64,000 nt of DNA from a virus. Each line of letters opens with the position of its first letter. Position 1 is the first letter of the stretch. The notes beneath the pieces are model-generated. The model was not told where the DNA came from and ran no database searches. It saw only the letters and a program-made list of their open reading frames with translations. The stretch is taken from the IMG/VR virus record IMGVR_UViG_3300045988_141072, positions 64,001-128,000 of that record; one strand, given 5' to 3'. Positions 3,734 through 43,912 of this stretch are shown one piece after another. Position numbers and translations under genes: made by a program.

Positions 3734-6700
3734 TTATCTTTTATTTGCTTGTTGATGAGCATATGAACTAAGACCAGCCAACGCATTAAATACATCATTA
3801 GCTTTTGATAAGTCGTTGATATTTGGCAAAGTAACTGTTCCAATAGAAACATTATTATTAACCATTTTATCACCAGTATTTTTAACCAAGTTGCTCATAT
3901 CAGGTATTTGAATATTGTCTAATATCATTTTTGTTGGATTAACACCAAATTTCCACAAGTTATCTGTAATATCATGTGGTAATATCTGGTCACCAGAATT
4001 AAGTAATCTTAACTCAGCACCTCCATCACCAACTATAGACATTCCACCCTTAGCATATTTTGTACCGGTTGCATATTTAGGAACACTGGCTGTAATCTTA
4101 CCATTCTTATCAATAGAAAAAGTAAGACTGTTAAACATTTTCTTGACACTATCTGACATTCCCTCAGTCATTCCCTTAGTTACAGCTCTAACTGCTTCAT
4201 CCACGGTCTTATACAGAGGTTTGCCATTTTCGTCAAAGAAGTTTACATCATCTTTGTGGTCATTTAGCCAATCTAAAATCTTGTTTAACGTATCGAGTTG
4301 TTCCTGATTATAATAGTCGTCAAGATTGTCTTGTGCTTCCTTAACTGCACTATTATCAGCCTCATAATTAAAACCATAATCCTCGTGATAGATTAAATTC
4401 TTTTTATTTTGTTTAGCACTCTGTAATGCCTGTTGAAGTTTTTCAAGTTCAATGGCTTTAGACTGAGCATCATTAAGGTCATTAATTTTGTCAATTAAAT
4501 CCTGAATTGAATTAATCCAAGGTGTCAACAAATCGTCATAGTTGTTCTCAATTTCTGCCTGTTTGTCAAGAATATCTCCGTCAAGACCATCAACTTCTTG
4601 AAGTTTATCCCGAAGTCCATCCCATGAATCAAAAGTCTTTTTAGAGATACCAAGTTTGCTGATACTCTTATAAAATTGGTCAACAGTAATAGTACCTTCA
4701 CGCATTCCTTCATACAAAGCCTTAAACTGCTTCTTCTGAGAAGAATTCAATCCTTTGTCTGATAACGTTTTGTTAATTTGACTCCATTTTTCATCACGTT
4801 CTTTTTTAAGCTGAGATAACCCATTAAGACCGATGGAAATCTGTTTTGTGATTTGCGATTCGTTTTTAGTATGTCCCTGTGACTCCCAGAATGAGATTAT
4901 CTTTTCATAGCGACTAGAAATAGCGTCAAGAACATTTTTAAACTTCTCGAGATTTTGATACGGTAATTCAGATATTGACTTATTCCATTCTAACTGGTTT
5001 TTCTCAGCATCGGATATATTTTTATCAATATCCCGAATTTTCTGCTTAATATCCTGATATTCATCTGAAGTCTTTGCGATATTATTGTTTTTGAGATATG
5101 CCTGATATGCCTTTTTCTCCTGATTCCATTTGTTAATCTGTTTCTTAGAATTAGAGATTTCTTCCTTATAATCACTCTTGGTTGCAGCAAAACCTTTTGT
5201 CTCATTTTTGTCAATTCGACTCTGTGTTTTATCTGCTTCATATTGTAACAAATCTAAATCGTCTTCTAAGTCAGAAATATCATCTTCCAATTGTTTTTTG
5301 ATAAGTTCACGTTTATTTTGTTTTGTTTCTGTAATGTTGTCTCTAGCACTAGTATACTTATCCCAATATTCCTGATAACTGTCGATTGCATCCAATACAG
5401 ATTTTTGTGACTTTTTACTTTTTCCCTTTTTAGCAGACTCTTTAATTGTTTGGATCGAATAATCACCGCTCTGAATCTTCTTTTTTAAATCAGAAGAAAG
5501 ATTAATGCTGTCGAGTTTTTTCTTGTATTTCTTTGCAGCTATTTCATATCCGTGTAATAAATCATCATACTGTTTTTTCGCCTGTTTAAATAAACCGTTT
5601 TTAGTTTTCTTAGAAGCGTAATCGTTTATCTTGTCAACAGTCTTCTTAACTTTATCTTCTAATCGTTTTAAACGAACCTCAATCCAATCAAACACTTTGT
5701 TAGAGGAAGAAGAATCAGAACCAGAACCAGAGCCAGTTACTTTGGGAAGAGAAAGGTCAATATCAATTTTTGTTTTAGTCTTTTTGCCCTTTTTATTTAA
5801 TTTGTTGCCAACTTGATCCTTTGCCATCTTTTTAGAATATTCGTCAACGGTCATTCCATTAGCTCTTGCAGCTGCTTCTAAACTCGAACCCTGATATTTA
5901 GAAGGATTGTTGTTTACATCTTGTAACAAACTAATATTATTAGCAGCAATTCCAGCAGCTTTAGCAATGTTATTTAACTGTTCTATGGTTTGGGTAGCGT
6001 CTAAATCTGACCAATTGGTTGTTTGATAAGCAAGTTTCGCAAGTTCAATTCTTGCCTTTTTAGAACCATTAGCTTCGCCAAGTAACATAGCAATATCAGT
6101 ACCCGACATTTCTGCCAACTCTTCGCCACTTTTAACAGTTTTCTTTTGTTCTTTGCTAAGAGCAGAATATGCAAGATTTAAACTTTTTGCTTTATTTTCA
6201 AGTTGAGTAGTAACAACTTCCTGTGCATTCTTTATACCTAAATCTTTTAACTGACTTGTATAATAATCCTTGTTTTCTTCTGTAAGCTGAGATAAGAAGT
6301 TGTTAGAATTAACGTATTCACTTGCAAGTTTATTCTGTGCTTCCTGACAGTCTGTAAGAGCAGAAGTAGTAGAACCAAGTGTGTTTTTAAATTCATTCCA
6401 AGACTTAAGTTTACCAAATTCAGGTTCCATACCGCTAAGAGTATCTGCACCGGCAACACCATTATCACGCTTATCGGCATATGCATCCTGAATTGATTTA
6501 ATGCTTGATTTAAGGGAATTTAACTGTTTGGAGCTATCAACCAAATCATTGATTTTCTTAATTGCAACATCAGCATCAATTCCTATTTGTGATAACCAAG
6601 TTTTTGCACCTTCTGTTGCTTCAAAGGTTTTCCTTGTAAGTTTACCTGATTCAGCAAGAGTAGTAAGGTCTTTCTTGGTATTTTTCATACCGGAATCATC

Positions 6701-8755
6701 GTCTGCGTTATCAAGGTCTGACCATGCATTCGCAAATTGCCTTTTTGCATCTATCTGTGATTGTTTAACAAATCTTTCTCTTAAATTTTTAAGTAATGTA
6801 TCACTTATATCTTTTTTAGCAATTTGAATAGCTCCGTCTTCACCAGAGAAGTGCATAAGACGACCAACAACTTCTGCCCAATTTCCATTGTTATCATAAT
6901 CTTGACTTGCACTAATAGCTGCATAAATACCATGTACAAAAGTATCACCAATTTTCATACCTTGAGCATCAAGTTTCTTTAATTCGTCATCTGAAACTTT
7001 ACCATCATCAGCGTATGCTTTTTGTAAAATAGTGTTAATATACTTTTCAACAGTGTCTTTTGATAAGAAAGTTCCATCGGGAAGAATAGGAGTAAATGCA
7101 ACCTCCCAACCATTACCATCTAAGTTTTCTCCAAAACGATCAGAACCACCAAATACAGTATCAATAGAGCCTACTTCTGGATTATAATCCCAACTTGCTA
7201 ATGCATCAGCATAAGTTTGTTTAAGCTCATCTGACCAATGGATAATTGTACGCTTATCCATATCAACGTTACCAAATTGCGATAATTTGTTTTTCTTAAT
7301 TGCATCTGCATAATCATCAAGTCCCCAATCAGAAATTTTCTGATATTCATCTTCGAGATTTTGTTGTGCTTCCTCAAATTTTTTTATTTGCTTTTGGGTA
7401 GCATTATTCTTAAAATCATTAATTATATTCTCGTCTATATTAGAAAAATCGGTTATGCTTTCTATTTCTTCATATTTTTTTAAAAGTTTCTGATAGTGCT
7501 TAGATTTTGTTGAAGCATATTCATTAACAGTGTCATCCAAACTATCTTGTGATTTTTTAGAACCTTCATCTATTCCGGAAAATAAATCATCAAAAACAGC
7601 CTTTCCACCGGATACAGTTTTGTTAATATCCTTAACCTTGTTTTTTACTGCGTTAAGATTTTTCTTTGCCGATTCGACACCTTTTCCTGAAGCTAATGCT
7701 TTATTATATTTTTCAACAGCATTTGTAGCTTCGTTATACATTTCTCTGGTGTCATCTCTTGACAAGATTTCTGCTTCGGCATATTTTTTTACATTATTTT
7801 TTGCCTTATTAATCTTGTCTTGATCAAAATCTGAGTCATTCTTTAAATCAGTAATCGTAGATTTATAAGAAGCTTTATATTTTAAATCAGAATTAGAAAT
7901 ATCATCAAAAAGGTTAGTCAATTGTTCTAAAATTTGTTCACGAGTTCCATTTGTATCAAGTCCGTAAAATCCATTTTCCGCACGATAAAATCCTAGATTT
8001 TTATACTTACTTACAATTTTTTCAAGCTTTGATATTTCAGAATCGTCAATCTTTCTTGTAACTCCCAAAACTGTGGATCTAATTAGTTCTTCATTTAAAT
8101 ACTTTTTATCTTCTTTGATATTATTATAGTTAGTAGAAACATAATCACTAGCTTTTTTCTTTGAAATTTTCTCTAGTTTACCTAGTTGCTCATCATATTT
8201 TCCATTAACTAAATCAAGTTTTTCAGCTTCATCACCATATTTTTCATTTAACTCATCTTGTATTTGAGTTAACTGTTCTTTGGTTGTTTTTATTTCTTCA
8301 TTAGAAAGAGAAGAATCTGCTAATTTGGTTTTTAATTCCTTATATTTAGATATAGATTCATCAAGTGAAGAATTTTCTTCATTCCAAGATTCGGTGAGCT
8401 CATTAGATTTTTCACGAGCTTTTTCCGATGCATGAACTAGATTATCTATTCCGGTTACAACTAGACTAATAACTTCTCCGATAGCCCATGCAGCAATCAT
8501 GTTTCCTGCCATGGATAATGCTTTCATACCAACGGACGCAGCTTTGGCACCAATAGTCATTTGTTTTAATCCGTTATTATAAGCAATAGCCGATTGTTTT
8601 GCTGCATTCTGAGCATTTTTTACATCATCAAGAGATACTTTTGTTAAGTTATTTTCTTGAACAAATCTTGATTGCCATTTTTCGCCTTCTTTTAATCCAT
8701 TAAAATAATCTTGCCAACTGCTTTGATTTGCATCTACTAATTTTTTCTGTGTCAA
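3734..8755 (-). CDS. tail tape measure protein, distal (C-terminal) portion. The annotated TTG start has no RBS and the frame is open upstream to 9043
   Basis: 1673-aa coiled-coil-rich ORF with hydrophobic segment (GAKAASVGMKALSMAGNMIAAWAIGEVISLVVTG) and typical C-terminal GGMSIVGDGGAELRLLNSGDQILPH region. See finding on split gene. Confidence 0.7.
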   Translation of the reverse strand: MTQKKLVDANQSSWQDYFNGLKEGEKWQSRFVQENNLTKVSLDDVKNAQNAAKQSAIAYNNGLKQMTIGAKAASVGMKALSMAGNMIAAWAIGEVISLVVTGIDNLVHASEKAREKSNELTESWNEENSSLDESISKYKELKTKLADSSLSNEEIKTTKEQLTQIQDELNEKYGDEAEKLDLVNGKYDEQLGKLEKISKKKASDYVSTNYNNIKEDKKYLNEELIRSTVLGVTRKIDDSEISKLEKIVSKYKNLGFYRAENGFYGLDTNGTREQILEQLTNLFDDISNSDLKYKASYKSTITDLKNDSDFDQDKINKAKNNVKKYAEAEILSRDDTREMYNEATNAVEKYNKALASGKGVESAKKNLNAVKNKVKDINKTVSGGKAVFDDLFSGIDEGSKKSQDSLDDTVNEYASTKSKHYQKLLKKYEEIESITDFSNIDENIINDFKNNATQKQIKKFEEAQQNLEDEYQKISDWGLDDYADAIKKNKLSQFGNVDMDKRTIIHWSDELKQTYADALASWDYNPEVGSIDTVFGGSDRFGENLDGNGWEVAFTPILPDGTFLSKDTVEKYINTILQKAYADDGKVSDDELKKLDAQGMKIGDTFVHGIYAAISASQDYDNNGNWAEVVGRLMHFSGEDGAIQIAKKDISDTLLKNLRERFVKQSQIDAKRQFANAWSDLDNADDDSGMKNTKKDLTTLAESGKLTRKTFEATEGAKTWLSQIGIDADVAIKKINDLVDSSKQLNSLKSSIKSIQDAYADKRDNGVAGADTLSGMEPEFGKLKSWNEFKNTLGSTTSALTDCQEAQNKLASEYVNSNNFLSQLTEENKDYYTSQLKDLGIKNAQEVVTTQLENKAKSLNLAYSALSKEQKKTVKSGEELAEMSGTDIAMLLGEANGSKKARIELAKLAYQTTNWSDLDATQTIEQLNNIAKAAGIAANNISLLQDVNNNPSKYQGSSLEAAARANGMTVDEYSKKMAKDQVGNKLNKKGKKTKTKIDIDLSLPKVTGSGSGSDSSSSNKVFDWIEVRLKRLEDKVKKTVDKINDYASKKTKNGLFKQAKKQYDDLLHGYEIAAKKYKKKLDSINLSSDLKKKIQSGDYSIQTIKESAKKGKSKKSQKSVLDAIDSYQEYWDKYTSARDNITETKQNKRELIKKQLEDDISDLEDDLDLLQYEADKTQSRIDKNETKGFAATKSDYKEEISNSKKQINKWNQEKKAYQAYLKNNNIAKTSDEYQDIKQKIRDIDKNISDAEKNQLEWNKSISELPYQNLEKFKNVLDAISSRYEKIISFWESQGHTKNESQITKQISIGLNGLSQLKKERDEKWSQINKTLSDKGLNSSQKKQFKALYEGMREGTITVDQFYKSISKLGISKKTFDSWDGLRDKLQEVDGLDGDILDKQAEIENNYDDLLTPWINSIQDLIDKINDLNDAQSKAIELEKLQQALQSAKQNKKNLIYHEDYGFNYEADNSAVKEAQDNLDDYYNQEQLDTLNKILDWLNDHKDDVNFFDENGKPLYKTVDEAVRAVTKGMTEGMSDSVKKMFNSLTFSIDKNGKITASVPKYATGTKYAKGGMSIVGDGGAELRLLNSGDQILPHDITDNLWKFGVNPTKMILDNIQIPDMSNLVKNTGDKMVNNNVSIGTVTLPNINDLSKANDVFNALAGLSSYAHQQANKR

Positions 8756-9119
8756 AAGTCCATTTAAAATGTCATCTGGATTTTGTTCGTATACAGATAA
8801 ATCTTTTAATTTATCTTGTATATCAGATTTAGTAATAATAAATTTATCACTTAGGTCTTTTTTAATAGAAGAATTTTTCCACGCATTTGCAATATTAGAA
8901 ATTGTATAATCATTTGTTGCGATTAATTCTTCTGAGACTTTTTTAAACCTATTGCCAATATCTTCAAACGATTTTCCAAATATACCAAACTGAGATGAAA
9001 ATGTATCTTTATCACTGTCAAATGTTTTGAATATCGTACTATATTAATACAAGCTGTTTGAAGACTTGTTGAATTTAATTATATGTGATACAATTTTCAT
9101 AAATTGGAGGTGTGCAATC

Positions 9120-9602
9120 ATGTTAATGTATTGTAAAAAATGTGGAAGAGTATGGATAAAATTTGGTACTGAAAAAGACAATTGTGATATATGTGATTCA
9201 ATTTGTTATCCTGTGCCAGATAAGTATTTATTGGTCTGGAATGGAGAAATTTATAAAAATAATTTGAATGAAAGCAAAAAAGATCAATTCATAGAAGAAT
9301 GCGTAAAATCTTCGCCAGAATTTGATGAATATCTCTTTAATAATCGAGACAGAACCAAAGCACAAAAATCTGCTGAATATGAACGAGATTTGGCTATCGG
9401 TGATGCAATACGTCAAGGTGCAGATGTTAAAACAGCTTTTCGTAATGGTGGACAAAATATTCCTAAATGTCCTACCTGTGGTTCGACAAATATTCAAAAA
9501 ATCTCCACCACAAGGAGATTGGTAACTACAGGTTTATTTGGATTAGCAAGCAGTAATGTTGGTAAAACTATGCTTTGTAAAAATTGTGGTTACAAGTGGT
9601 AA
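9120..9602 (+). CDS. double zinc-ribbon protein
   Basis: ATG 8 nt after GGAGG (9107-9111). CKKCG...CDICD at N-terminus and CPTCG...CKNCG at C-terminus. Confidence 0.65.
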   Translation: MLMYCKKCGRVWIKFGTEKDNCDICDSICYPVPDKYLLVWNGEIYKNNLNESKKDQFIEECVKSSPEFDEYLFNNRDRTKAQKSAEYERDLAIGDAIRQGADVKTAFRNGGQNIPKCPTCGSTNIQKISTTRRLVTTGLFGLASSNVGKTMLCKNCGYKW

Positions 9603-9693
9603 ACAATATCGAATGCATGTTCAGGCTATCCTCATTTGGTAATTAGTGGTAAAATATTCCTATAAAAATAATGTACAGAGGAGGAAGTTTACT

Positions 9694-9999
9694 ATGACAA
9701 CTAATGAACAATGTATGAAAGATATTCTTACTTTCATTGACGAAAACACAAGCGTAAAAGTTAGGACATCTAGCAATAATGATATTGAATTGCGAGCACC
9801 TGGAATTTCATCAATATTAACAGCTTTGAGCAAAGATAATAAATATTCTATTGAAGAAGTTGCTTTTAATCTTGTAAAATGTGATAAATTACATCTTATA
9901 GATGCAAACTTATATACTCAAGGGAATACTATTAAATCTGCTCAAAGTGATATTTATGGTATTACATGTTACGGAGAACAATTTATCAAAGAAAAATAA
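9694..9999 (+). CDS. DUF2513/YjcQ-like small winged-helix protein
   Basis: ATG after AGAGGAGGAA RBS. C-terminal ...ITCYGEQFIKEK resembles the GHDFL motif of DUF2513; paralog of 11244..11684. Confidence 0.45.
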   Translation: MTTNEQCMKDILTFIDENTSVKVRTSSNNDIELRAPGISSILTALSKDNKYSIEEVAFNLVKCDKLHLIDANLYTQGNTIKSAQSDIYGITCYGEQFIKEK

Positions 10000-10025
10000 T
10001 CTACTTTTATGTTTTTATCGGTGTT

Positions 10026-10208
10026 TTAAATTTCTGATTCATCATCAGGAAATCTTAAATATCCTGTACATTTTAAGCGATCAAGTGAATTATTTAAAAA
10101 GACTACGGCTTGGAAATAATCCAAGTCGTTTTCTTTGAATAACAATAATAATCCACTATATAATTGTTCTATTTTTTCATGAGTACCAATACTTAATTTA
10201 TTGTTCAT
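10026..10208 (-). CDS. hypothetical small protein
   Basis: 60-aa MNNKLSIGTHEKIEQLY..., ATG after GAGGTGA RBS. The longer track ORF lacks an RBS. Confidence 0.45.
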   Translation of the reverse strand: MNNKLSIGTHEKIEQLYSGLLLLFKENDLDYFQAVVFLNNSLDRLKCTGYLRFPDDESEI

Positions 10209-10272
10209 AATTATCACCTCATAATAAATTGCTAAAGAGTATACAAAGTCGAAATAGAATAGGAGAACTAAT

Positions 10273-10710
10273 ATGTTATCAGATGAACAATTACAAAGAT
10301 TATCTGAAATCATAAGTTCAGCAGAATACAAAAATTATACAGCCAGCCAGATAAAGGAACAGACATATAAAAATCTAAAACAAAATAATATTCCAGATTT
10401 TGAAAATCCAATAGTAACAGAATTAAAAACTGCTAACAGTAAGATTGATGAATTATCAGAACAGTTGGATTATTCATATACACAACTTAAACAAGCAAAT
10501 GATAAAATTTCTTCTCAGAATTTATATATAAAAGAGTTGAAATCTGATTTAAAAGAAGAAACTGAGAAAAGAGTAATTGCCGAAAATAAGTTGGGTAGTA
10601 AAGATTGGAAAACTGCACTGATTTCGTTTGGGTTTGCTTTACTTGTTTTGATAATAGAACATTGGAAAGACATTTTAACTTTTATACTATCCCTAATACA
10701 CGCAAGATAG
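10273..10710 (+). CDS. coiled-coil protein with C-terminal transmembrane segment
   Basis: 145-aa ORF after AGGAGAA RBS. C-terminal WKTALISFGFALLVLIIEHW hydrophobic helix. Confidence 0.55.
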   Translation: MLSDEQLQRLSEIISSAEYKNYTASQIKEQTYKNLKQNNIPDFENPIVTELKTANSKIDELSEQLDYSYTQLKQANDKISSQNLYIKELKSDLKEETEKRVIAENKLGSKDWKTALISFGFALLVLIIEHWKDILTFILSLIHAR

Positions 10711-10819
10711 TAATCCCAACACAATACCCTAAAATAGTTCCTATACCTTGGAAAAATATTTGTCGTTTTATTTCTTTAGACATATTGACTCCTTTCTTTG
10801 AAATAAATACTGTCATTCA

Positions 10820-10936
10820 ATGAACACTTCTAAAATTGGCACAGTAAGTCGTATGATTTCGACCACTATGTTCGGATTAGCAAGTAAGAAAATGGGTAAA
10901 CAATGGCACTGTAATAGCTGTAAGAGTGATTTTTAA
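10820..10936 (+). pseudogene. 38-codon remnant paralogous to the C-terminus of the 9120..9602 zinc-ribbon protein
   Basis: SRMISTTMFGLASKKMGKQWHCNSCKSDF versus ISTTRRLVTTGLFGLASSNVGKTMLCKNCGYKW. No RBS, N-terminal CxxC missing. Confidence 0.3.
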
Positions 10937-10969
10937 AAATAGAATAATTCACTTAAACATATGTTCCGA

Positions 10970-11185
10970 CTAACAAAATCCATCAACATGATTTAATGCC
11001 ATTACAACATCGTTATCAACATGGTTCGTTTTATGACCACTAAAATAATCATCATATATTGCATATTCTAATTCATTACGTTGTTCCTTAAACTTATCAG
11101 TGAGAAGCGTAAGAATTTCTTCGACTTCAGAATATGTACATTTGTGATTTTTTAGCATTTGAGAAATTTCAACTGAGAGATACAT
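10970..11185 (-). CDS. hypothetical small protein
   Basis: 72-aa MYLSVEISQMLKNHKCTYSEVEEIL.... The upstream part of the track ORF overlaps the RBS of 11244..11684. Weak RBS. Confidence 0.35.
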   Translation of the reverse strand: MYLSVEISQMLKNHKCTYSEVEEILTLLTDKFKEQRNELEYAIYDDYFSGHKTNHVDNDVVMALNHVDGFC

Positions 11186-11243
11186 TGTTTTTGAGATATA
11201 TTTATTATCCAATTTATCACATCCTTTCAATGGAGGTATACTA

Positions 11244-11684
11244 ATGAAGCTTAATCCTGATTGCATGAGAATTATACTTAAATACTGTGTAGAACATATT
11301 GATTATAAAGACATTGGTCTTAATCAGTGGCATGAAAATTCTGTTACACTTGCTATGCTATATAATAGTGATGAACTCAAAGAGTTTGAGAAGAAAGAAA
11401 TTATGTATTCTGTAATGAAACTTTATGAGTATAGGTTTATTACCGTATCTAAAATTCAGCCAACAAACGGACAACAATATTTTGACAGTTGTGAAATAAC
11501 AGACGTAACGGTTTATGGTCACGACTTTTATAATTCTATTCAAGAAGATACCATCTGGAATAAAACTAAAAATGTTGTTGGTCAAGTTGGAAATCACACA
11601 TTGAAGTTCATCGAAGATGCTGCTCAAAAAATTGCAATTGAGTCTGCGAAACAAGCTGTAACTATTACGATGATGCAAAAATAA
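11244..11684 (+). CDS. DUF2513-like winged-helix protein
   Basis: ATG after GGAGGT RBS. ...VTVYGHDFYNSIQEDTIWNKTK matches the GHDFLD..r.D..W.k motif as I remember it. Followed by hairpin plus T-run at 11708-11736. Confidence 0.5.
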   Translation: MKLNPDCMRIILKYCVEHIDYKDIGLNQWHENSVTLAMLYNSDELKEFEKKEIMYSVMKLYEYRFITVSKIQPTNGQQYFDSCEITDVTVYGHDFYNSIQEDTIWNKTKNVVGQVGNHTLKFIEDAAQKIAIESAKQAVTITMMQK

Positions 11685-12033
11685 TATTTAGATCAAATAG
11701 AATAGAAGAGTAGTGAGAAATTACTACTCTTTTTTAGACAAAAAAGAGCAACTATAAACATATAGTTGCTCATAAAAGAAATATCTTTTTATATAATTCA
11801 CTGGCTCAATGCCAAATAGCGTTAGGAAAATGGTAATCCTAACATATCAATTCACTGTCCTTATTGACTATTTAACTATGACACATTTATTCTTTTTCGT
11901 CAACAATGTTCTTTTTCAATTGTATTATATGCGATATGAGCCAAGTGTAATAGTTGTGGGCATACTTGATAGAAGAAGAACAATAGAAGAGGAGTAGACT
12001 ATATCGCCGCTCTTTGCTTTTATGTAAAATAAA

Positions 12034-12062
12034 ATGAGAGCAGGTCACACCTACTCTCATTC
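12034..12062 (-). terminator. intrinsic terminator downstream of DUF3800 gene and GGTCACACCT motifs
   Basis: Minus strand AUGAGAGUAGGUGUGACCUGCUCUCAU followed by UUUAUUUU. Its loop contains a third copy of the GGUGUGACC core. Confidence 0.55.
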
Positions 12063-12145
12063 TTTCTACTGATGATATTTATCTCCCTGCTTCGTGGTCA
12101 CACCTCTATCAGTTCGACTACCGTACCTCGTGGTCACACCTCTAT
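12043..12145 (-). repeat. three copies of GGTCACACCT core; two 17-nt copies (CGTGGTCACACCTCTAT) exactly 36 bp apart
   Basis: Copies at 12043-12052, 12093-12109, 12129-12145 read directly from the sequence. They lie between the DUF3800 stop and the terminator. Confidence 0.7.
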
Positions 12146-12192
12146 TACGGTATTAATATCATAATAAATATATTCTATGATGTCAATGTTTA

Positions 12193-12918
12193 TCATAAAA
12201 TATTTTTTATTCCCAATATCTCCTTATATTCTGTATCTACATTATAAATTTTAGCTCCTAGTATTTTTGCTAATTTATGAAAATCTTTTTTAACATTCGC
12301 ATTATATCTAAGCATTTGTGATGGAACTATATCTGCTATTTGCAAACCAATGCAATTATCACCTTTCACAGTAAAACCAATAGAAGATAAGTAGTTACTA
12401 ACTTCTTTTTCATCAAAATAAATAGAGCCATTTTGTAAATATCTATAAAAGACATCTAAGACATTTTTATTTTCATTAAAGCAACGTGACTCAACACAAA
12501 TTTGACCATAACCACCTTTATCTCTTAGATAATATGTAAACATATCTAATAAATGATAAAATCCAATATTATAATTATTACCGGCTTTCCCATATCGCAA
12601 TTTAGACATTTTATTATTATCAAAGTAAATACATAAAATATCAAGTTTTGCCTCTGATAGAAGTTTTGCGTAATCATCCCAAAACGGTTTTCTTATCTTT
12701 TCATCTTGTAGACAAGCAAAATCTTTTTTATTCTTTCGCATATCGGTATAGTGAAAAACAATATCGGTACGACCAAAATGTTTTTGCTTTAATTGGTTTA
12801 CAAGTTTTGTTAATTCCTTTTCGTAATATTCTCTCTCAACGACAATTCCAGCAAAACAAAAGTTTGAATAATGTTTATCTGGTTTAGTTTCGTCAACAAA
12901 GAGCAAATAATCAGCCAT
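12193..12918 (-). CDS. DUF3800-family protein
   Basis: ATG 7 nt after GGAGA. N-terminal LLFVDETKP (DE[ST] motif) and C-terminal LQIADIV motif, as I recall for DUF3800. Confidence 0.6.
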   Translation of the reverse strand: MADYLLFVDETKPDKHYSNFCFAGIVVEREYYEKELTKLVNQLKQKHFGRTDIVFHYTDMRKNKKDFACLQDEKIRKPFWDDYAKLLSEAKLDILCIYFDNNKMSKLRYGKAGNNYNIGFYHLLDMFTYYLRDKGGYGQICVESRCFNENKNVLDVFYRYLQNGSIYFDEKEVSNYLSSIGFTVKGDNCIGLQIADIVPSQMLRYNANVKKDFHKLAKILGAKIYNVDTEYKEILGIKNIL

Positions 12919-13052
12919 AATATATTCTCCAATCATTAGTATTATAATTCCCCATTATATACCAATAATCGACAGAATACTATTCAGAACGTTTGTTTAT
13001 AGGTGAATAGAATAGAAGAGTAATGAGAAATTGTTGCATAATAAAAGACACC

Positions 13053-13589
13053 TTAGTTGGTGTCTTTATTGTTTTGGTACATCTTTGCTAATTGCTCCAT
13101 ACCTTTGAAATCAATGCAACGCTTGGAAATAGTATTTTCTGGTTTATCATATTTTAGACTATAAAGCTCCAAAGCCTTAGTACCTAAGTCTAATTTGTTG
13201 ATTGCCTTCAGCTCTGAATCTAACAGATTAATATATCTGCTTTTAGCTTCTTCTGACTCAAAAGACCTGTATGTATCTATTTTCTTTTTCTCAAATTTTT
13301 GTGTACATTCTTTTGGAATTGGAAACATATAATTCAAATTTACGACAGCAATTAGTCTTTTTGGATTTTTGAGATCAAACAGTTTATAGAAATCTTTCTG
13401 TTGTCCCATTTTTTGATGTCGCTTTTGTGGATGAGATACTTGTGTTATATAATATAAACCGTCTTTTTCAAAAAGAACTCCGAAGAATGGCTTATATTTG
13501 TCTGTCCCATAATCTGTTTTTGGTATTCTTTTTTCTACATTTCTCAAATAATCTAAATAATTTTCATTTACATGAATCCATTTCATCAT
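13053..13589 (-). CDS. toxN: ToxN/AbiQ-family type III toxin endoribonuclease
   Basis: MKWIHVNENYLDYLRNVEKRIPKTDYG..FFGVLFEKDGLYYITQVSHPQKRH..VVNLNYMFPIP pattern parallels AbiQ/ToxN. AGGAGA RBS. Preceded by repeat array and terminator. Confidence 0.8.
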   Translation of the reverse strand: MMKWIHVNENYLDYLRNVEKRIPKTDYGTDKYKPFFGVLFEKDGLYYITQVSHPQKRHQKMGQQKDFYKLFDLKNPKRLIAVVNLNYMFPIPKECTQKFEKKKIDTYRSFESEEAKSRYINLLDSELKAINKLDLGTKALELYSLKYDKPENTISKRCIDFKGMEQLAKMYQNNKDTN

Positions 13590-13606
13590 ATGTCTCCTAA
13601 ATAAAA

Positions 13607-13625
13607 GGAGCTGTAACACAGCCCC
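13607..13625 (-). terminator. intrinsic terminator between antitoxin repeats and toxN
   Basis: Minus strand GGGGCUGU-GUU-ACAGCUCC (8 bp) followed by UUUUAUUU, then the toxN RBS. Confidence 0.75.
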
Positions 13626-13627
13626 TT

Positions 13628-13731
13628 ATTAATACGATTTTTTACATGCTTCGTAACATCTATTAATACAGTATTTTTACATGCTCTGTAACATCTATTA
13701 ATACGATTTTACGGCTTCGTAACCGCTATTA
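13628..13731 (-). ncRNA. toxI: toxI-like antitoxin RNA: 3 full and 1 partial tandem repeats of 31-35 nt
   Basis: Head-to-tail units 13628-13661, 13662-13696, 13697-13727, partial to 13731. TATAAT -10 on minus strand at 13760-13765. Confidence 0.75.
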
Positions 13732-13899
13732 TAGAAATCATTTCTGATTTCTTACTTATATTATACACAATTATGAGAAAAAATCTATGCTTTTTTTGAA
13801 AAACTTTTAAATTTTTTAAGTCAATAAAAGTCGAAAAAATACGATGAAAAATTGTATCGCATTTTTGCAAAGTATTATATAATTATTTAGGGGGGGAGA

Positions 13900-14499
13900 A
13901 CAAAAGTCCATAGATTTAATTCTGTGGGCTTTGTTTTTATGTGTGTTTCTTTCAAACTTACGGTACACACGAACCCTACTGTTGTCCTATTAACAATGTG
14001 CTATTTAATAAGGTGAGAGCAGTAACACTCTTTTACGCTTTTATATCTCAGTCACGAGAGTAGTACGATAACTACGTATGGAGTCCCTTTTACAAGCTAT
14101 CTTATGATAACTCAAAATCGTTTAGACTCTCTGAACACCTCCATTATAATATTCTCTATTATAATAGAATCCGTTGCTGATTGCCGATTTAGTTCATATA
14201 GAACCGATACTTAGGGTTGCCCCATATATCCGAATAACCTCCATTTCTAGATTTGACTTTTCTTGTTGTCACCAACATCCTTTCGGAATACATTCACGCT
14301 CGCCATTTCTAGCCACGTTGTAGTGTGTTATTTTATATATACGGTATATTTTATTTCTTCCCAGCACTGTGAGATAGCAACTCACAATTACGATTTATTT
14401 TAAAACATCTATAGGCTGACTAGACCTAATCTTCCCAACTCTTGATTGTTATCTTGAGTTAGGTGGGCATATTCAAAACAATAACAACGATTTGAAAAA
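13900..14499 (-). ncRNA. candidate structured RNA (about 600 nt) directly downstream of tape-measure proximal half
   Basis: No ORF of 60 aa or more on either strand, many stable hairpins, duplicated CUAGAAAUGG, ends in hairpin plus U-run near 13900-13935. Identity unknown. Confidence 0.3.
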
Positions 14500-17400
14500 T
14501 TACGCACTCACGTAACATTTACCGATGTTTTTAAAACTAAGACCTGCTGCAATAGCAGCAAAAATATTTGGAATCAAACGCCCATCTTTTATTACAGTAT
14601 CAAGAGCGCTAATTAATTTTCCAGCATTATCAATAGCACCCTTTAAAAAGTCTGATGATAACGCATCATTTGCTAATTCTTCTAGTTTAGCTTTTGTAAC
14701 ATCAATAGAATACTGAATTGATTTCTGATAATTTTCTTGTTCTTTTTGTGCAGAACCGGCAGAGTTTTCGGCTGTTTTATATACATTTTCTAATTGATCA
14801 ATATTCTGCATAACAGAATATAAAACATTGGCATTTCGTTTTCCAGCCAAAGCCTCTCCAAGAGAAGACTGTTCTAAGTCTGTAAGATTATTCCACTCTT
14901 TTCCTATTCCAAGTAAAATATCGTATATTGACTTAAAAGTATTTTCATCTTCCATAATATCAAATCCAGTAAGGGATTTGATCAAATCTCGTAATTTTGA
15001 AGTTGTTTTGGTATATTCATCTGTTTCTTCGCCAAGATTTTGCAATTCTGTTTCTGCACCACGAATACGTGCAGAAAGTGTCTTAAATGTTGTACCGATA
15101 CTGTCTGGATCTTGCACTACAGCATTTGCAGTAGTAACTAAAGCTATACTTTCAGATAAACTCGTGTTTGCAGCATTAAACGAAGCAGCAGAACGTTTCA
15201 AAGCTTCGCCAATACCTTGTGTGTCTATTGCATAGTGGTTCGCAACCTCATTAAATTTGTCAATTATGCTTTCGGCTTTACTTGCATCTAACTGAAAACC
15301 TTGAAGTGTTGAAATAAGATTTTCACTTGCAGTTTCTGTAGACATATTGTCGCCGACATTAACATAAAGCTGTGTCGTTTTCGCTAATTTCTCTGCGTCT
15401 GGAATAGAATAACCAAGTCTAGCCCAATCTGCTTGCAATGATACAATGTTACTAATTGAAGAACCTAAATCTTTTGCATCGACTGTCGCCTGTTCAAGAG
15501 CATTATTTAAGTCCGACTCTGTTCCGTCAGACACCTTTCTTAATTCAGTGACACTTTTATTAATTTCATTAACTAAATTAAATCCTTGCTGTAGATATCT
15601 TATCCAATCTTGCCAACTCAAAAACTGAGCAACAAACTTGCTGTTCATATCAGTAAGACGACTACCAATTTGACTAAAGAAGTTTTTGCCCATATTACCA
15701 GTTGAAGCAACATCTGCCTTTAATCCAGAAAAAGATATTTTAATCTTTTCAATTTCTTGTGCAGTTACTTTACCAGCGTTTTTAAGTTCTTCTGCATAAT
15801 CAATAATACTATCTAAATTCTGCTTCTGAGATGAAGACATATTGGTGTTTTGCGATCTAAAAATCTTCATCTGTGATATAATATCAGCAATCTTAGAATC
15901 TTGTTTAACAAGTTTATTCTCTAACAATTTTGAATCGTCAACTATTTTTTGAACTTCACTATCAATCGCCTTTAAGCGGGCAACGTCTTCTGGTTTTGTG
16001 ATATTAAGCCGCTCAATTTCTTTCATTTTTGAGCTAACTCGCTCAATAAATTCAGGAGTATATTTAGAAGCATTAGTGTATGTAGATAATTTTTGTACTT
16101 CATCATTTTGAATTTTTAAAAGACTATTATCGACTTTTTGTGCATTTTTTTGCTGAATCTCCGAAATAGTTTTATCTATTTTATCCAACTTATCCTGTGC
16201 ATTAGATAATTGTTTAGACGATAATATGGTGGCAGAACCATCTGCTTTTCCCATAATTTCATTTATTGTTTTCAATAATTCTTGGGAATCTTTTTTATCG
16301 TTATTAAATGCCTTGTCATTTGCCATTCGTTTTCTTATAGAAGCATATTCATCTATGGCAATATTTAACTCTTTGAATTTTTGAATTTGCTTGTCCGTTT
16401 TAGGTATTTTTATTTCATCTTTTCCAAAGTTTGTCAACTCATTATCAAGATTATTAATCCCCTTAGTAATAGTTCGAAATCTTTGAGAAAACATATTTCC
16501 ATCTGCGTCAATTCTTGCAGAAAATGTTTTCCAAGTTCCATCAGCGTCTTTTATTTTTGCACTTACCTTTACAAGACCATCAACAAGTTCAGTGTTTACT
16601 GTTTCTCCAAGAATTGTATATCCAGAATTTAATAACTTCTCATTAACTCTATTAGGAGAGTAATTTAAGAAATCTTCTTCTGATATTTTTTTTCTTTTTG
16701 TATATCTATCCTTTTTAGGTGGAGTAGGTGGAGTTGTATTTCCCGATGAAATATTCGATTCTTCTGATGGAAGAGTAGTATCATCTTTTGGTATTTTTAA
16801 TTTAGGAATATTTTCTATCTTTTCTACCAATGGATTTAAAGCATCAATAATTTTCTGAATAGATTTGACTTCAGCCCTTGCAGCTAATTCCATCGTATTA
16901 GCTTCTATCTTAATTGCTTCAGTTTTTATATTAATAGTAGAAGTTAAAGTATTAACAGAATCTTCTACTTTATTAAACCCTTTTGCTTCATTCGTGACAG
17001 AAGTTCCATCTTTTTTTGAATTCATCTGTTCATAGACTTTGTTCATTTTTTTAATGGTTTCTGTGTTGTCTGTTAAATCAAAAGGTGTTTTCATACCGCC
17101 AGCGTTTACATACTTTTGGTACATTTCAACTAATTCTTGAATATCTTTCTTCTGCTTAGATAAATTGATTTTACCAGATTCATCAGCAATGGATTTGAAT
17201 TTAGATTCAATAGAAGACCACTGTTTATCTACATCGCTAATAGAAGCGTCTTTGAACATTTTCCAAAATGTATTACCAATATCTCTTGTCAAATTTATCA
17301 TACGGTCAAGTCGAGAAATAACATCATCAAGAGTAGAAGATACTGATTCCAATTCATTGTCTGCTTTGTCTACAGAAGATGTATCTACTTTCTGGGAATT

Positions 17401-19293
17401 TAACTCTTTAACTTTTAAAAGAATAGTATCTATGATATTCTTGCTATCTTCAAGTTTCCCAACCCTTCCAATAGAAGACAACTCATTAGTGCCGCCCATA
17501 TTGAGATATTTATTATATTCTGAAGCAAGCTTATCCACATTTGCATTTTTTCTAAAAGTACCATCTAATTTGATAGAATTTTCAATTAACTTAGATACAT
17601 TCTTCCACTGCGTTTCGATGTCGGTGACACTACTTACACCCGATGCTCTTGCAAGAGTAGATTCTATATTCTGTAATGTCTTTAACATTGACTGCAATTC
17701 GGTTAATTGACCAAGACTTTTTGAAATTTCTTCTGCAAATTTATCAAATCCTTTAAAACTAAAATTCTTTGAATCTGCTGAATTTAATAATTCATTAACC
17801 TCTACAAGTTTGTCAGCAAGTTCATTAACCTCTTTTTTTGATTCTGCTATTTGACCTGTAATATCAATCTTTTTACCAGAATCGGAAGAAAGAAGTGCGT
17901 CTGATATTTTTTTGAATTCTTTTTCATTAAAATCAAAACATAATTTAATAGGAGAAATTTCAAATATATTTTGAATTTTACCAATTGTTTTCTTAGAATA
18001 AGAAACAGCCTCATCCATTATAGAAGTAAATGTCTTCTTATAAACACCTTCTAAATCAATAACTGCATCTTCACCAGTTTTTGCTAATTCTCTTTGATAT
18101 TTTTTTGAATAAGACTTGCTTACAGTTCCGACTTCACCTTTTTTCTCAGAAGATACTGCATTTGGTGCTACTACAAGTTTTACAGGAGCAACAACAGGAT
18201 TATTATTAAGATCATTCTGCAAATTATCAAGAATAGGAGAGAGCTTCTTCCATAATTCAGACGAAGTGGTTTCAATTGTTACACCAGTTACTAATTCTGC
18301 TGAATTTGGATTGAGTTTATCTGATATTTTTGCGGAAGCTGTTTTAGACGAAGTAGGTTTTATCATTTTTTCTAATTCTTCACGAGTTTTGATAGCCGAT
18401 TCACGAATTTCATCTAAAGTACCCTTTACGATTTTTCCATATTCAGATACTTTTTTGTCAACATTGTCATCAGAAATAAGTATTGAATCGCCAAATGTAT
18501 ATTCCCCTGTTTTATCAGGAATATCCATTAACTGTTGAATAGAATCATGTAAATCGGCAGCTTTTAATTTTAATATATTAATTTGGTTAATTGTTTTTTC
18601 AAAACCAATACTGTTTTTATCAAAGTTTGAAAGTTCCGATTCAGATTTTTCGATTAATTCAAGAGTGTTTTTTAAATCCCTGGCAAGAACATCTAATTCT
18701 GCTTGAGCTTGATCTGTATCAAATAATTCATATTTTGAACCTTTTGCATCACTGAATTCATCTGTACTTTTAAGTAGTTTATTAATTTCTTTTATCTGAG
18801 ATTTTGCTTGATTTACTGCGTTATCATCAAATGACATTAATGAAATGCCTTGATCATTAAGCTTCTTAATCATTGTATCAATAGCATTATTTGTATTCTG
18901 TACATAGTCTTGGAAATCTTTAAATTGACTACTTATTTTACTTATATCAATACCATTTCCAAGTATTTTTATTTGTGAATTTATAGTTGAAACAGCTAAA
19001 TCTAATCTATCAATTTCTGCACGAACAGATTCAAAATTCTTATTAACAGTTTGCTTAAAAGCCTTAAAACTGTTTTTATCCACTTTTCCGATACTTAAAT
19101 CAGAAAAAGATTTTTCCATATCTGCCTTAAAACGTTTTAATTCAGCAATAGTGTTATCAAATTGTGCCTTCATTCCTTTTGATAACTTATCACTTGAAGC
19201 CATCTCGGTTAAAGCAGATTCGTAATCACGAATCATCTGATTAAGCTCATTCTTATAATCAATAGCAATACTTACTACACCATCTTTTGCCAT
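14500..19293 (-). CDS. tail tape measure protein, proximal (N-terminal) portion
   Basis: 1597 aa, ATG after AAGGAGGAA RBS. Long coiled coils plus TP901-type core ...LKRSAASFNAANTSLSESIALVTTANAVVQDPDSIGTTFKTLSARIRG... Confidence 0.8.
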   Translation of the reverse strand: MAKDGVVSIAIDYKNELNQMIRDYESALTEMASSDKLSKGMKAQFDNTIAELKRFKADMEKSFSDLSIGKVDKNSFKAFKQTVNKNFESVRAEIDRLDLAVSTINSQIKILGNGIDISKISSQFKDFQDYVQNTNNAIDTMIKKLNDQGISLMSFDDNAVNQAKSQIKEINKLLKSTDEFSDAKGSKYELFDTDQAQAELDVLARDLKNTLELIEKSESELSNFDKNSIGFEKTINQINILKLKAADLHDSIQQLMDIPDKTGEYTFGDSILISDDNVDKKVSEYGKIVKGTLDEIRESAIKTREELEKMIKPTSSKTASAKISDKLNPNSAELVTGVTIETTSSELWKKLSPILDNLQNDLNNNPVVAPVKLVVAPNAVSSEKKGEVGTVSKSYSKKYQRELAKTGEDAVIDLEGVYKKTFTSIMDEAVSYSKKTIGKIQNIFEISPIKLCFDFNEKEFKKISDALLSSDSGKKIDITGQIAESKKEVNELADKLVEVNELLNSADSKNFSFKGFDKFAEEISKSLGQLTELQSMLKTLQNIESTLARASGVSSVTDIETQWKNVSKLIENSIKLDGTFRKNANVDKLASEYNKYLNMGGTNELSSIGRVGKLEDSKNIIDTILLKVKELNSQKVDTSSVDKADNELESVSSTLDDVISRLDRMINLTRDIGNTFWKMFKDASISDVDKQWSSIESKFKSIADESGKINLSKQKKDIQELVEMYQKYVNAGGMKTPFDLTDNTETIKKMNKVYEQMNSKKDGTSVTNEAKGFNKVEDSVNTLTSTINIKTEAIKIEANTMELAARAEVKSIQKIIDALNPLVEKIENIPKLKIPKDDTTLPSEESNISSGNTTPPTPPKKDRYTKRKKISEEDFLNYSPNRVNEKLLNSGYTILGETVNTELVDGLVKVSAKIKDADGTWKTFSARIDADGNMFSQRFRTITKGINNLDNELTNFGKDEIKIPKTDKQIQKFKELNIAIDEYASIRKRMANDKAFNNDKKDSQELLKTINEIMGKADGSATILSSKQLSNAQDKLDKIDKTISEIQQKNAQKVDNSLLKIQNDEVQKLSTYTNASKYTPEFIERVSSKMKEIERLNITKPEDVARLKAIDSEVQKIVDDSKLLENKLVKQDSKIADIISQMKIFRSQNTNMSSSQKQNLDSIIDYAEELKNAGKVTAQEIEKIKISFSGLKADVASTGNMGKNFFSQIGSRLTDMNSKFVAQFLSWQDWIRYLQQGFNLVNEINKSVTELRKVSDGTESDLNNALEQATVDAKDLGSSISNIVSLQADWARLGYSIPDAEKLAKTTQLYVNVGDNMSTETASENLISTLQGFQLDASKAESIIDKFNEVANHYAIDTQGIGEALKRSAASFNAANTSLSESIALVTTANAVVQDPDSIGTTFKTLSARIRGAETELQNLGEETDEYTKTTSKLRDLIKSLTGFDIMEDENTFKSIYDILLGIGKEWNNLTDLEQSSLGEALAGKRNANVLYSVMQNIDQLENVYKTAENSAGSAQKEQENYQKSIQYSIDVTKAKLEELANDALSSDFLKGAIDNAGKLISALDTVIKDGRLIPNIFAAIAAGLSFKNIGKCYVSA

Positions 19294-40613: not shown

Positions 40614-40686
40614 CACACCTTCTACGATTTGAACATAGACCTGACAATTTTGGAGATTGTTGCTCTACCAATTAAGCTAAAGGTGT
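40614..40686 (-). tRNA. tRNA-Trp (CCA)
   Basis: Hand-folded cloverleaf: acceptor ACACCTT/AAGGTGT, anticodon stem ACAAT/ATTGT, loop CTCCAAA, T-loop TTCAAAT. Confidence 0.85.
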
Positions 40687-41143
40687 AAAATCATCACATT
40701 GACTTCGCTAATCAAACAGACTATAATATATCTGCCATAATTGGCAGAAAGGAATGGTGATTATGTTAAAAGCCGTTTTGAATATGCCCGTTCTGAGTAA
40801 AAGTCAATGCGATGGCAATAATAGTATTACAGATCCCAACTGCTAAAGTGAGGTTGCCTTGATTAAGACAAGATTTCACATCAACCTATTTACAAAGTGG
40901 TGTAAAATGTGTACACGCACCGTCAGGAACAAAAGGATAAAAGCTCAATGACGGTACTGAGCTTACCACAATGCAAATTGCACCAAGGTCTTAGAAAAAA
41001 AAATTGGGAATAAGGCTGTCAAAGTGATGTGCTTGATAGCCTTATTTTTAATAAAGCGAGAGAGTAGTGATGAGCTACTCACATCTAAAAGTTGTATGCA
41101 TCCCACTAATAGATTTTCATCTTCAGGACTTCTCGCATAATAG

Positions 41144-41217
41144 CGACTCTAATGGGACTCGAACCCATAATCTTCTGATAGACAGTCAGACGAATTAACC
41201 AATTCTTCCATAGAGCC
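41144..41217 (-). tRNA. tRNA-Asp (GTC)
   Basis: Acceptor GGCTCTA/TAGAGTC, anticodon stem TCTGA/TCAGA, loop CTGTCTA, T-arm ATGGG-TTCGAGT-CCCAT. Confidence 0.8.
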
Positions 41218-41879
41218 ATACGCAAATGTCAACATAAAGCACCAACTAGTTGACTTGAACTGTACACATCCAGTTATTTAGAATAAAAAGTTAGACAATT
41301 CATTCATGCTTTCTAAATCACTTCAATCATATTTACTCGCTAACCAACGCACGAGAAGGAGATTGCTACCTGTGCCACCCAAAATACATTGCGCTTATGT
41401 AGTAACACTCCATATCTTTACCTCAAAAATAAGTGAGTATCATAGCTACACACTTACATACAGCAACTTAATAACCCGGTAAAATAATTGGTTTGGTTAA
41501 AAGCTTGACTAGGTGCAAGCACCTCTTCAAGTAAAAATCCAAAGATTTTTTGTTCATTATCGTTTCTCATTAACGCAGAGAATCACGGACATCTTCTCAT
41601 TTTGAAGGATGAGAATAACCAAAGAATCTAGATGTCGATAGAATAGAAGATTGGACTTATAATGCTACATGGATAGCAAATGCCAAGATATGATAACATT
41701 AATAATCAATAGTAAAAATCTATCAACGAATTGATAGACCACCCTTACTCTCATGAGAGTGTAAGCAGCTTGTAATATATTATTCTCTACATTGTCTCCA
41801 CCTCTCGGCTCAAATATCACGTTACTATGCTTTCTTGTTGAAATTGATTTTGGTTAGACGAAGGCTTCATCAGCATCTT

Positions 41880-42914: not shown

Positions 42915-43013
42915 TAAATCTCACTTCCTTTCACACATAAAAAAGAAGCAGTAATACTAATTAACTAACTGCTTCTAAGCAACATTTTCTATATTTAAAA
43001 AATCAAATCTTTC

Positions 43014-43892: not shown

Positions 43893-43912
43893 AATTAAAA
43901 ACACCACCCAAA

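Follow-up and report, generated by a model that had tools for sequence, protein, structure and literature searches.

Group I introns have been described at three sites in the tape-measure genes of Bacillus cereus-group prophages (TMP-IVS1, TMP-IVS2 and TMP-IVS3), where different introns share one site with identical P1/P10 and most are without a complete homing endonuclease (Tourasse & Kolsto 2008, PMC2504315). In the IStrons of Clostridia, which combine a group I intron with IS605/IS607, the core lies at the 5′ end, protein-coding cargo extends over kilobases 3′ of it with the splice site at its far end, and splicing in cis occurs in vivo (PMC10690162). Here we analyse a 64,000-nt stretch of viral DNA (positions 64,001 to 128,000 of IMG/VR record IMGVR_UViG_3300045988_141072, hereafter called the window), in which the tape-measure gene is very probably interrupted by a cargo-bearing group I intron. 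The gene is read on the minus strand and appears as two open reading frames (ORFs), which are listed below with the proposed exons and intron.

14500..19293, minus strand: upstream ORF (TMP-N), 1,597 aa, with an ATG behind AAGGAGG
3734..8755, minus strand: downstream ORF, 1,673 aa, called from a TTG
14521..19293, minus strand: proposed exon 1, 1,591 codons, with the PhageMin_Tail core, ending ...UUU AAA AAC AUC GGU
14523-14521, minus strand: GGU, last codon of exon 1
9035..14520, minus strand: proposed group I intron, 5,486 nt, with the 5′ splice site after U14521
9035, minus strand: proposed terminal intron G (omega-G), the last base of a codon-like ACG
3734..9034, minus strand: proposed exon 2, 1,766 codons plus stop, with first base A9034 and beginning AUAUUC

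The upstream ORF matches PF10145 (PhageMin_Tail) at residues 1272-1484 and ends in ...FKNIGKCYVSA before its stop codon. Upstream of the TTG at position 8755, the frame of the second ORF is open for 96 codons, to a TAA at 9046-9044, without ATG, GTG or TTG; 93 of these codons are assigned to exon 2, and the other three (YST) come from the last nine bases of the intron. A distant relative has a single ORF, P0029, that holds both PF10145 and exon-2-like sequence. From the sequence, the two ORFs of the window appear to be parts of one tape-measure gene, in which the KCYVSA tail of the upstream ORF would be intron read-through and the second half would be without a start codon because exon 2 continues an interrupted gene. 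The predicted ligated product has 1,591 + 1,766 = 3,357 aa. An earlier note on this DNA had pointed out the ATG with its ribosome-binding site in front of a tape-measure core and the run of 96 start-less codons, and both observations were reproduced here. Its proposal of a single interrupted gene also stands (about 3,360 codons, with uninterrupted relatives), but the edges that it gave, 9044-14499, do not, the intron being placed here at 14520..9035.

The exon boundaries were placed by comparison with relatives, for which 80 loci were fetched by a profile of the C-terminus of TMP-N (138 loci were fetched overall, and individual loci are given below by L-numbers). It was found that TMP-N homologues of 35-85% identity lose similarity right after ...SFKN(I/V)G, and that the tails after this G are unrelated to each other (KCYVSA, RVKIVALM, KDKMFSFFLS and IDTLVAY, each followed by a stop codon). 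The last ~25 nt of exon 1 are near-invariant in nucleotides, while the codons upstream vary. The alignment with related phages that the earlier note had proposed yielded about 25 contigs with an uninterrupted tape measure, in which ...K-x-[VILN]-G-[IVF]-F... runs straight across the junction, as in ...LSITKGVG-IFGVEENAKEATRQLTIFGKKW... and ...SFKGNG-FFKVIEDE.... The spliced window sequence, ...LSFKNIG joined to IFKTFDSDKDTFSSQFGIFGKSF..., aligns without gaps with these uninterrupted tape measures, with K, G and F invariant; in this alignment, ligation of the exons restores the ORF of the intron-less alleles. A megablast search of the region against 50,697 phage records gave no match.

On the exon-2 side, when the 96-codon extension was joined to the N-terminus of the second ORF and used as a protein query, dozens of relatives were retrieved that begin MIFKTFDSDKD.... 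The triplet in front of exon 2 reads ATG in some phages; in the window, L010, L017 and L025 it is ACG, and in L018 it is AAG. Of its bases, the final G alone is constant, and the AUAUUY... after it is conserved. No Shine-Dalgarno sequence was found before this codon in any relative examined. Because the triplet varies, only the G is invariant and a Shine-Dalgarno sequence is absent, the codon seems to behave as the terminal G of a group I intron and not as a start codon.

The window contains exactly two copies of the 12-mer ATATTCAAAACA, one on the minus strand (9023-9034) and one on the plus strand (14469-14480), with 0.13 expected from shuffles of the 64 kb. The guide of a group I intron consists, from 5′ to 3′, of the complement of the start of the 3′ exon (which forms P10), a G opposite the U of the splice site, and the complement of the end of the 5′ exon (which forms P1). 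Because the window has exactly this P10-G-P1 arrangement, the inverted repeat can be read as P10.

14466..14480, minus strand: internal guide 5′-UGUUUUGAAUAU-GCC-3′, intron nt 41-55
9023..9034, minus strand: P10 partner, the first 12 nt of exon 2, AUAUUCAAAACA

Guide bases 14480-14469 pair with nt 1-12 of exon 2 in P10, and guide bases 14468-14466 (GCC) pair with the GGU of exon 1 in P1, with the G opposite U14521 and CC opposite GG. The GGU/GCC pairing, which includes the U.G pair at the splice site, is invariant in 14/14 sequences but is only 3 bp long. P10 has 12 bp in the window and 7-16 bp across the variants (7 in L017 and at least 9 elsewhere, with 16 bp in L016, 15 in L018, 13 in L025 and 12 in L047); for L008, a contiguous scan gave 9 bp, and by eye 11 bp more lie beyond a small internal loop.

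The pairing was also evaluated by an unbiased scan in which every U in the last 45 or 130 nt of the exon-1 ORF was combined, wherever the join stayed in frame, with every G in the first 200 nt of the exon-2 frame. The top solution was the homologous G^[IMLQS]F junction (the caret marks the splice site here and below) in the window, L076, L071, L081, L098, L097, L062, L092, L138 and L118. P1 covaries (UGUCGGU/GCCGACA, UAGGU/GCCUA, CUGGGU/GCUCAG and CUAGAU/GUCUA), and P10 does so too, across 10 or more intron lineages that share this codon. Summed over 13 lineages, P10 amounts to 81 bp if only Watson-Crick pairs are counted, to 142 bp with G.U pairs, and to 83 bp with A.C, the antisense equivalent. 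Therefore, the pairing of the ends is a property of the sense RNA, because G.U lengthens P10 whereas A.C hardly does. The earlier note had proposed that the inverted repeat lets the ends meet within one transcript and had listed removal at the RNA level among its options; the covariation of P10 bears out the former, and its sense-RNA-specific pairing makes the latter the most likely route.

A cryptic sequence resembling a 5′ splice site, GUGAGU^, lies in frame at 14508-14513 on the minus strand, and 5/6 of its positions pair with GCCCAC of the guide. It was rejected as the conserved 5′ splice site: in L019 it is preceded by an in-frame stop, in L008 the frame is lost, and the join would add KCYVS, which is absent from the intron-less homologues. 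It could be an alternative 5′ site in window-type introns. A splice after GCGU (phase 1) was rejected as well, since it would need an intron ending in A. The join of 14508 to 9042 given by the earlier note is arithmetically in frame but misplaced, the sites proposed here lying 13 nt upstream of it at the 5′ end and 8 nt downstream at the 3′ end.

The 5′ part of the intron is an ORF-free stretch that has the features of a ribozyme core, as follows.

13941..14520, minus strand: predicted ribozyme core, ~580 nt, ORF-free
14500..14515, minus strand: covarying hairpin UUACG-UGAGUG-CGUAA, which holds the stop codon of the exon-1 ORF
14434-14463, minus strand: P2, from the core alignment
14391-14396 with 14115-14120, minus strand: P3, covaries in L091
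14361-14365 with 14176-14180, minus strand: P4
14140-14168, minus strand: P6
14124-14129 with 14081-14086, minus strand: P7, covaries in L091
14093-14114, minus strand: P8
14060-14075, minus strand: P9
13941-13970, minus strand: terminal hairpin of the core

The minimum free energy of the fold of this stretch (~580 nt) has a z-score of -2.6. A 26-mer taken from the core was found in 18 viral contigs, 25-183 kb long, and with a looser pattern 28 metagenome contigs were obtained; among species-representative genomes, there was no match to the core, and the exon-2 junction pattern was present in two contigs of metagenome-assembled genomes only. The core is ~82% identical between the window and L008, although the flanking tape-measure proteins are only ~40-47% identical. 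Beyond ~13941, the sequence is unrelated between contigs.

The structure was derived with RNAalifold from an alignment of 14 distinct cores, which gave 135 pairs, 57 of them with compensatory changes. For the final model, two invariant long-range pairings were taken out, and a P1 of 3 bp, the terminal hairpin and P3, which is pseudoknotted, were put in. This model has 24 helices, and 98.3% of its cells are paired, compared with 36-41% when partners are slid by 1-3 columns. It was found that 62/136 pairs had changed on both sides, whereas shuffles gave 19 ± 3 (0/500 reached 62) and the slid controls 6-12. The order of the helices is that of a group I intron, namely P2, P2.1, P3, a large P4-P5 domain, P6, P7, P3′, P8, P7′ and P9, plus extensions. 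In L091, P3 has changed from AAAUCG/CGAUUU to AAGCCA/UGGCUU (3/6 P3 pairs covary) and P7 from GAGUCU/GGACUC to GAGCAU/GUGCUC (2/6 P7 pairs covary), and the core thus has the P3-P9 organization of group I, including the P3/P7 pseudoknot. Four of the five pairs of the hairpin at 14500..14515 show compensatory changes, and this hairpin is absent in L091. An R-like element, GUUCAGAGAGUCUAAAC, and a Q-like element, AAUCAGCAACGG, are visible by eye in the core.

Two invariant long-range pairings proposed by RNAalifold stand outside the model. One joins CGGUA (14520-14524) with UACCG in the loop of the terminal hairpin (~13961-13965), and the other joins the guide sequence UUUGAAUAU (14469-14477) with GUGUUCAGA (~14127-14135, in J6/7-P7), all on the minus strand. 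They show no covariation; their role might be to retain exon 1, or to prevent the ribozyme from acting before exon 2 has been made.

The same codon is used by other introns. About 50 further loci are split there by other intervening sequences, many of which have textbook P/Q/R/S elements, and the lengths of the introns at this site range from 1.1 to 7.5 kb across lineages. In L098, a match to RF00028 (Intron_gpI) of 60.7 bits (gathering score 50, E 1e-12) lies directly after GGU^AAAC; the core is 5′, followed by ~1.5 kb of cargo with reverse-strand ORFs and then by ...AUAUG^AUAUUCGGUU, with a P1 of 5 bp and a perfect 10-bp P10, AACCGAAUAU. The cargo of the relatives includes GmrSD_N/DUF262 nuclease-like ORFs, which are the commonest single cargo, as well as DUF3800, TIR and PemK. 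The intervening sequence of L102 at this codon encodes a TnpB (11071-12258; OrfB_IS605 plus a Cas12f1-like TNB), and is an IStron-like element at the same site. Three further RNA matches were noted in the relatives: a Fusobacteriales-1 RNA inside the intervening sequence of L126 (12274-12400), a RAGATH-18 RNA in L132 (18949-19012), ~2 kb downstream of the exon-2 ORF and outside the intervening sequence, and, in L097 (2912-3236), another Rfam-certified group I intron (78.7 bits), which lies upstream of the tape-measure gene.

The following course of splicing is proposed. The guide, 41-55 nt into the intron, would pair with the end of exon 1 to form P1 (GGU/GCC, including the canonical U.G pair of the splice site), and through 12 bp with the start of exon 2 to form P10, which would tether the 3′ splice site from 5 kb away. 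Guanosine-initiated transesterification would then ligate ...AAC AUC GGU^AUA UUC AAA..., so that the junction expected in spliced RNA is ...AAAAACATCGGT^ATATTCAAAACATTT... (also written ...TTTAAAAACATCGGT^ATATTCAAAACATTTGAC...) and the product would be a single 3,357-aa tape measure reading ...SFKNIG-IFKTFDSD.... The great distance from the core to the splice site appears to be offset by the unusually long pairing of the guide with exon 2.

Several points weigh against a group I intron that splices in this way. The window's own core scored only 10.5 bits (E 7) against Rfam RF00028, and nothing was found at E <= 1 over 6 kb. RF00028 omits P7 and copes poorly with large P5 insertions. P1 of the window-type intron consists of GGU/GCC plus one isolated U-A pair, whereas sister lineages at the same site have 5-7 bp. 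The cargo holds at least four hairpins on the sense strand that resemble intrinsic terminators (13627-13605, 12063-12031, 11771-11746 and 11731-11706; 11 terminator-like hairpins were found in the region where 1.6 were expected), and several cargo genes are antisense to the tape measure; because of these hairpins and antisense genes, a cis precursor of 5.5 kb would need read-through. In most lineages, the last triplet of the intron is AUG or UUG, either of which is a usable start codon, so that some independent translation of exon 2 may occur. No homing endonuclease was recognised in the window's cargo by domain and defence-system searches or by a structure search with the zinc-ribbon protein. 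Finally, none of the 105 closest protein homologues spans the junction, which is unusual for a mobile intron; intron-less forms were found only among more distant relatives, and the intron in this clade looks fixed and not sporadic. On the other side stand a fold and a guide logic that both covary, a ligated product that aligns without gaps, a modular and mobile cargo, and the invariant G with which the intron ends (the last triplet being ATG, ACG or AAG in window-type loci). On this balance, a cargo-bearing group I intron in the tape-measure gene remains very probable, and splicing would take place in cis from a read-through late transcript.

A bipartite intron that splices in trans would also account for the antisense genes and terminator-like hairpins that separate the core from the 3′ splice site. 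In such an intron, an RNA with exon 1 and the core would be ended by the cargo terminators, the last intron bases and exon 2 would be on a separate RNA, and the guide would join the two. Such an arrangement would agree with the position of every catalytic element 5′ of the cargo, with the occurrence of free-standing 3′ halves in bacterial chromosomes, and with the length of P10 (7-16 bp), which is like that of the extended guides of engineered trans-splicing ribozymes (PMC6155759). However, all phage contigs examined have both halves in colinear order on one strand, at a distance of 2.8-7.5 kb, there is no convincing promoter for exon 2 (on our reading of the sequence, the 84-nt spacer is accounted for by the divergent promoter of a zinc-ribbon gene), and IStrons splice in cis over comparable layouts (PMC10690162); we therefore consider trans-splicing unlikely. 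It is much less probable still that two proteins are made, with TMP-N stopping at 14500 and a TMP-C starting at the ATG/ACG by leaderless or other non-canonical initiation, and with the RNA as a relic or in another role. Gene callers do start most relatives at M-IFKTF, the five bacterial island loci described below that start with M-IFKTF (or M-IVKT) all have an ATG there (the sixth, L010, has ACG with an upstream GTG), and close relatives are without an intron-less allele. These apparent starts are of the kind that the earlier note had named as evidence for an independently initiated second gene, but the codon is ACG or AAG in the five loci listed above, and no start codon with a ribosome-binding site was found in any lineage. 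A leaderless mRNA beginning at the ATG was rejected, since the ATG is not conserved and the spacer is better explained by the zinc-ribbon promoter. In addition, the intron-less homologues are continuous exactly at the junction, the core is under structural selection, and the guide tracks changes in exon 2 by compensatory and G.U changes, which is not expected of a relic. The earlier note's other options, namely a tape measure made in two pieces by an unknown initiation route or a recently inactivated gene, are likewise unlikely.

Excision of the island at the DNA level, by site-specific recombination before tail expression or packaging, is very improbable. The cargo is mobile and is shared with chromosomes at up to 99.5% identity, a TnpB occurs at the same site in L102, and IStrons show low-level DNA excision (PMC10690162), but no recombinase or transposase was found among the island proteins of the window, the boundaries are without direct repeats (ATCGGT^AAATGT versus AGTACG^ATATTC), dozens of large viral contigs carry the interrupted form, and the pairing of the ends relies on G.U, which would be meaningless in DNA. 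The least credible of the alternatives is a group II or other non-canonical intron bounded by GUGCG (14507-14503) and AU (9044-9043), as the earlier note had suggested from the presence of GUGCG in the window and the in-frame join of 14508 to 9042. It is refuted by the comparison with relatives and fails on several counts: no Rfam group II model matched at E <= 1, and neither domains V/VI nor a reverse transcriptase/maturase was found; GUGYG is not conserved, L008 having AAGCGUAUACG and L018 UAGCGUGUAUAC at this place; the gap between the zinc-ribbon gene and exon 2 of L008 is just 42 nt, too short for domains V-VI; and the join would add residues absent from the intron-less homologues, is preceded by an in-frame stop at the equivalent site of L019, and is out of frame in L008.

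Under the preferred reading of a group I intron, ~4.9 kb of exchangeable cargo, encoded on both strands, lies between the core and the 3′ splice site. The features of this cargo in the window are as follows.

13627..13731, minus strand: 3.2 tandem 35-nt repeats, antitoxin-RNA-like
13605-13627, minus strand: terminator-like hairpin after the repeats
13053..13589, minus strand: ToxN/AbiQ-family endoribonuclease toxin (PF13958, E 2.9e-42; PADLOC AbiQ, 5.5e-21)
12954..12976, minus strand: promoter cassette TCTGTCGATTATTGGTATATAAT before the DUF3800 gene
12193..12918, minus strand: DUF3800 protein (PF12686, E 5.8e-11), of a family also found as cargo in L003, L008 and L106
11244..11684, plus strand: DUF2513 protein (E 4.3e-15)
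10273..10710, plus strand: coiled-coil, probable membrane protein with a C-terminal hydrophobic segment (weak coiled-coil matches)
9646..9999, plus strand: weak DUF2513-like protein (E 8.7e-4, below the curated cut-off)
9120..9602, plus strand: double zinc-ribbon protein, 160 aa, divergent from exon 2

Scattered small ORFs are also present. The DUF3800 and toxIN genes, the opposite-strand genes and the ORF-free structured RNA had all been recognised by the earlier note, which put the RNA at ~600 nt. The ToxN-fold toxin behind ~35-nt repeats and a terminator is predicted to be a type III toxIN/AbiQ system; the 35-nt repeats have no match to ToxI in Rfam. The exact 23-mer cassette before the DUF3800 gene was found in 23/138 fetched loci, always in cargo or chromosomal islands, and it spans different intron lineages (the loci include L001 at 4921, L008 at 5745, L011 at 7013, L080 at 12145 and 18 more); it is bracketed by the inverted repeat AATAGTATT/AATACTAAT. 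Downstream of the DUF3800 gene, at ~12035-12150 on the minus strand, there are 2-3 copies of TAGAGGTGTGACCACGA-like repeats, which end in the hairpin 12063-12031. A 17-mer, TACTCTTCTATTCTATT, occurs twice (0.04 expected), at 11696-11712 and 13006-13022 on the minus strand, each time just downstream of a cargo gene or terminator, and may mark a cassette boundary.

Of the cargo genes, that of the zinc-ribbon protein alone stays beside the 3′ splice site, and it does so in all window-type contigs, L098 and the chromosomal islands. Its 1,154 homologues carry no informative name, Pfam and PADLOC gave weak zinc-ribbon matches, and an AF2 model with a predicted local distance difference test score (pLDDT) of 84 gave nothing at E <= 0.001 in a Foldseek search against the PDB.

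The cargo presumably serves defence or counter-defence, and the intron looks like a vehicle for moving defence-type genes. A group I intron can, on this evidence, hold a bidirectional, multi-promoter island of 2-7 kb between its core and its 3′ splice site. Within an essential structural gene, such an intron would be a safe harbour for cargo, which is there silent for the tail gene and not lost by imprecise deletion. For annotation, this phage group presents a trap, since gene calling divides the tape measure into two ORFs, of which the first carries a junk tail and the second has a false or missing start, whereas the true product would have ~3,360 aa.

Parts of the same arrangement are found in bacterial chromosomes, probably of the hosts, in the following islands.

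L001 4900-11323: bacterial island
L003 6450-10918: bacterial island
L006 1-3295: bacterial island
L007 1-3089: bacterial island
L010 1-2851: bacterial island
L011 7000-12289: bacterial island

Each of these islands, which are 5-6 kb long and lie between housekeeping genes, combines cargo and the zinc-ribbon gene with the 3′ splice-site context (..AGUAUG^AUAUUCAAAACA) and a stretch of exon 2 of 305-762 codons; exon 1 and the ribozyme core are absent from the chromosomal islands examined. Identity between their cargo and that of phage introns reaches 99.5%, and one island protein was named Eshraghiella crossota by its source. The islands may be prophage remnants kept for their cargo. It is unlikely that the ribozyme acts on a 3′ acceptor on another molecule, either by joining phage exon 1 to island exon 2 or, more modestly, in natural trans-splicing by the phage intron itself. 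If the former were true, the 12-bp guide pairing would join the RNA of exon 1 and the ribozyme to truncated exon-2 transcripts of the host, and the resulting tape measures would be dominant-negative, a defence that hijacks the phage intron. The shared cargo modules and the shared cassette point to an unrecognised exchange of defence or counter-defence genes between gut phages and their hosts.

Elsewhere in the window, the following RNA features were observed.

59395-59463, plus strand: Pistol self-cleaving ribozyme (RF02679, 64.9 bits against a gathering score of 34.5)
40614-50243, minus strand: five tRNA genes (Rfam tRNA, 39-67 bits), consistent with a large (~154 kb) phage genome

Compared with the tape-measure introns of the B. 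cereus group (PMC2504315), the window intron is similar in lying inside the tape-measure ORF of a Firmicutes phage and in sharing its site with several other introns whose P1/P10 are adapted to that site. In contrast to those compact IA1/IA2 introns, it is 5.5 kb long and carries a multi-gene cargo on both strands with promoters of its own, and its P10 is of 12-16 bp while P1 is minimal. With the IStrons it shares the 5′ core, the 3′ splice site at the far end and the host range in Clostridia. Unlike the IStrons, its cargo is without TnpA/TnpB or omega-RNA in Pfam and Rfam searches, is of defence type, is partly antisense and varies between otherwise near-identical introns; furthermore, the window intron is inserted at one fixed codon of one gene and not at transposon target motifs. 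The introns of T4 td/nrdB/nrdD, SPO1 and Twort likewise place a ribozyme in an essential phage gene, with a peripheral or 3′ ORF and a conserved exon context, but the window intron has no recognisable homing endonuclease. The predicted toxin module resembles type III toxIN/AbiQ systems in having a ToxN-family toxin behind 3.2 repeats of 35 nt and a terminator-like hairpin; unlike the known systems, it sits inside an intron of a phage structural gene, and its repeats match no Rfam ToxI. If natural ribozymes choose an acceptor 5 kb away by a guide of 12-16 bp, they may serve as templates for the design of trans-splicing ribozymes. In the literature searched, we found no description of group I introns with multi-gene, bidirectional, defence-type cargo. 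Tape-measure genes with group I introns were known already, as was the arrangement of a core at the 5′ end with cargo 3′ of it; what appears to be new here is the multi-gene, bidirectional, defence-type cargo.

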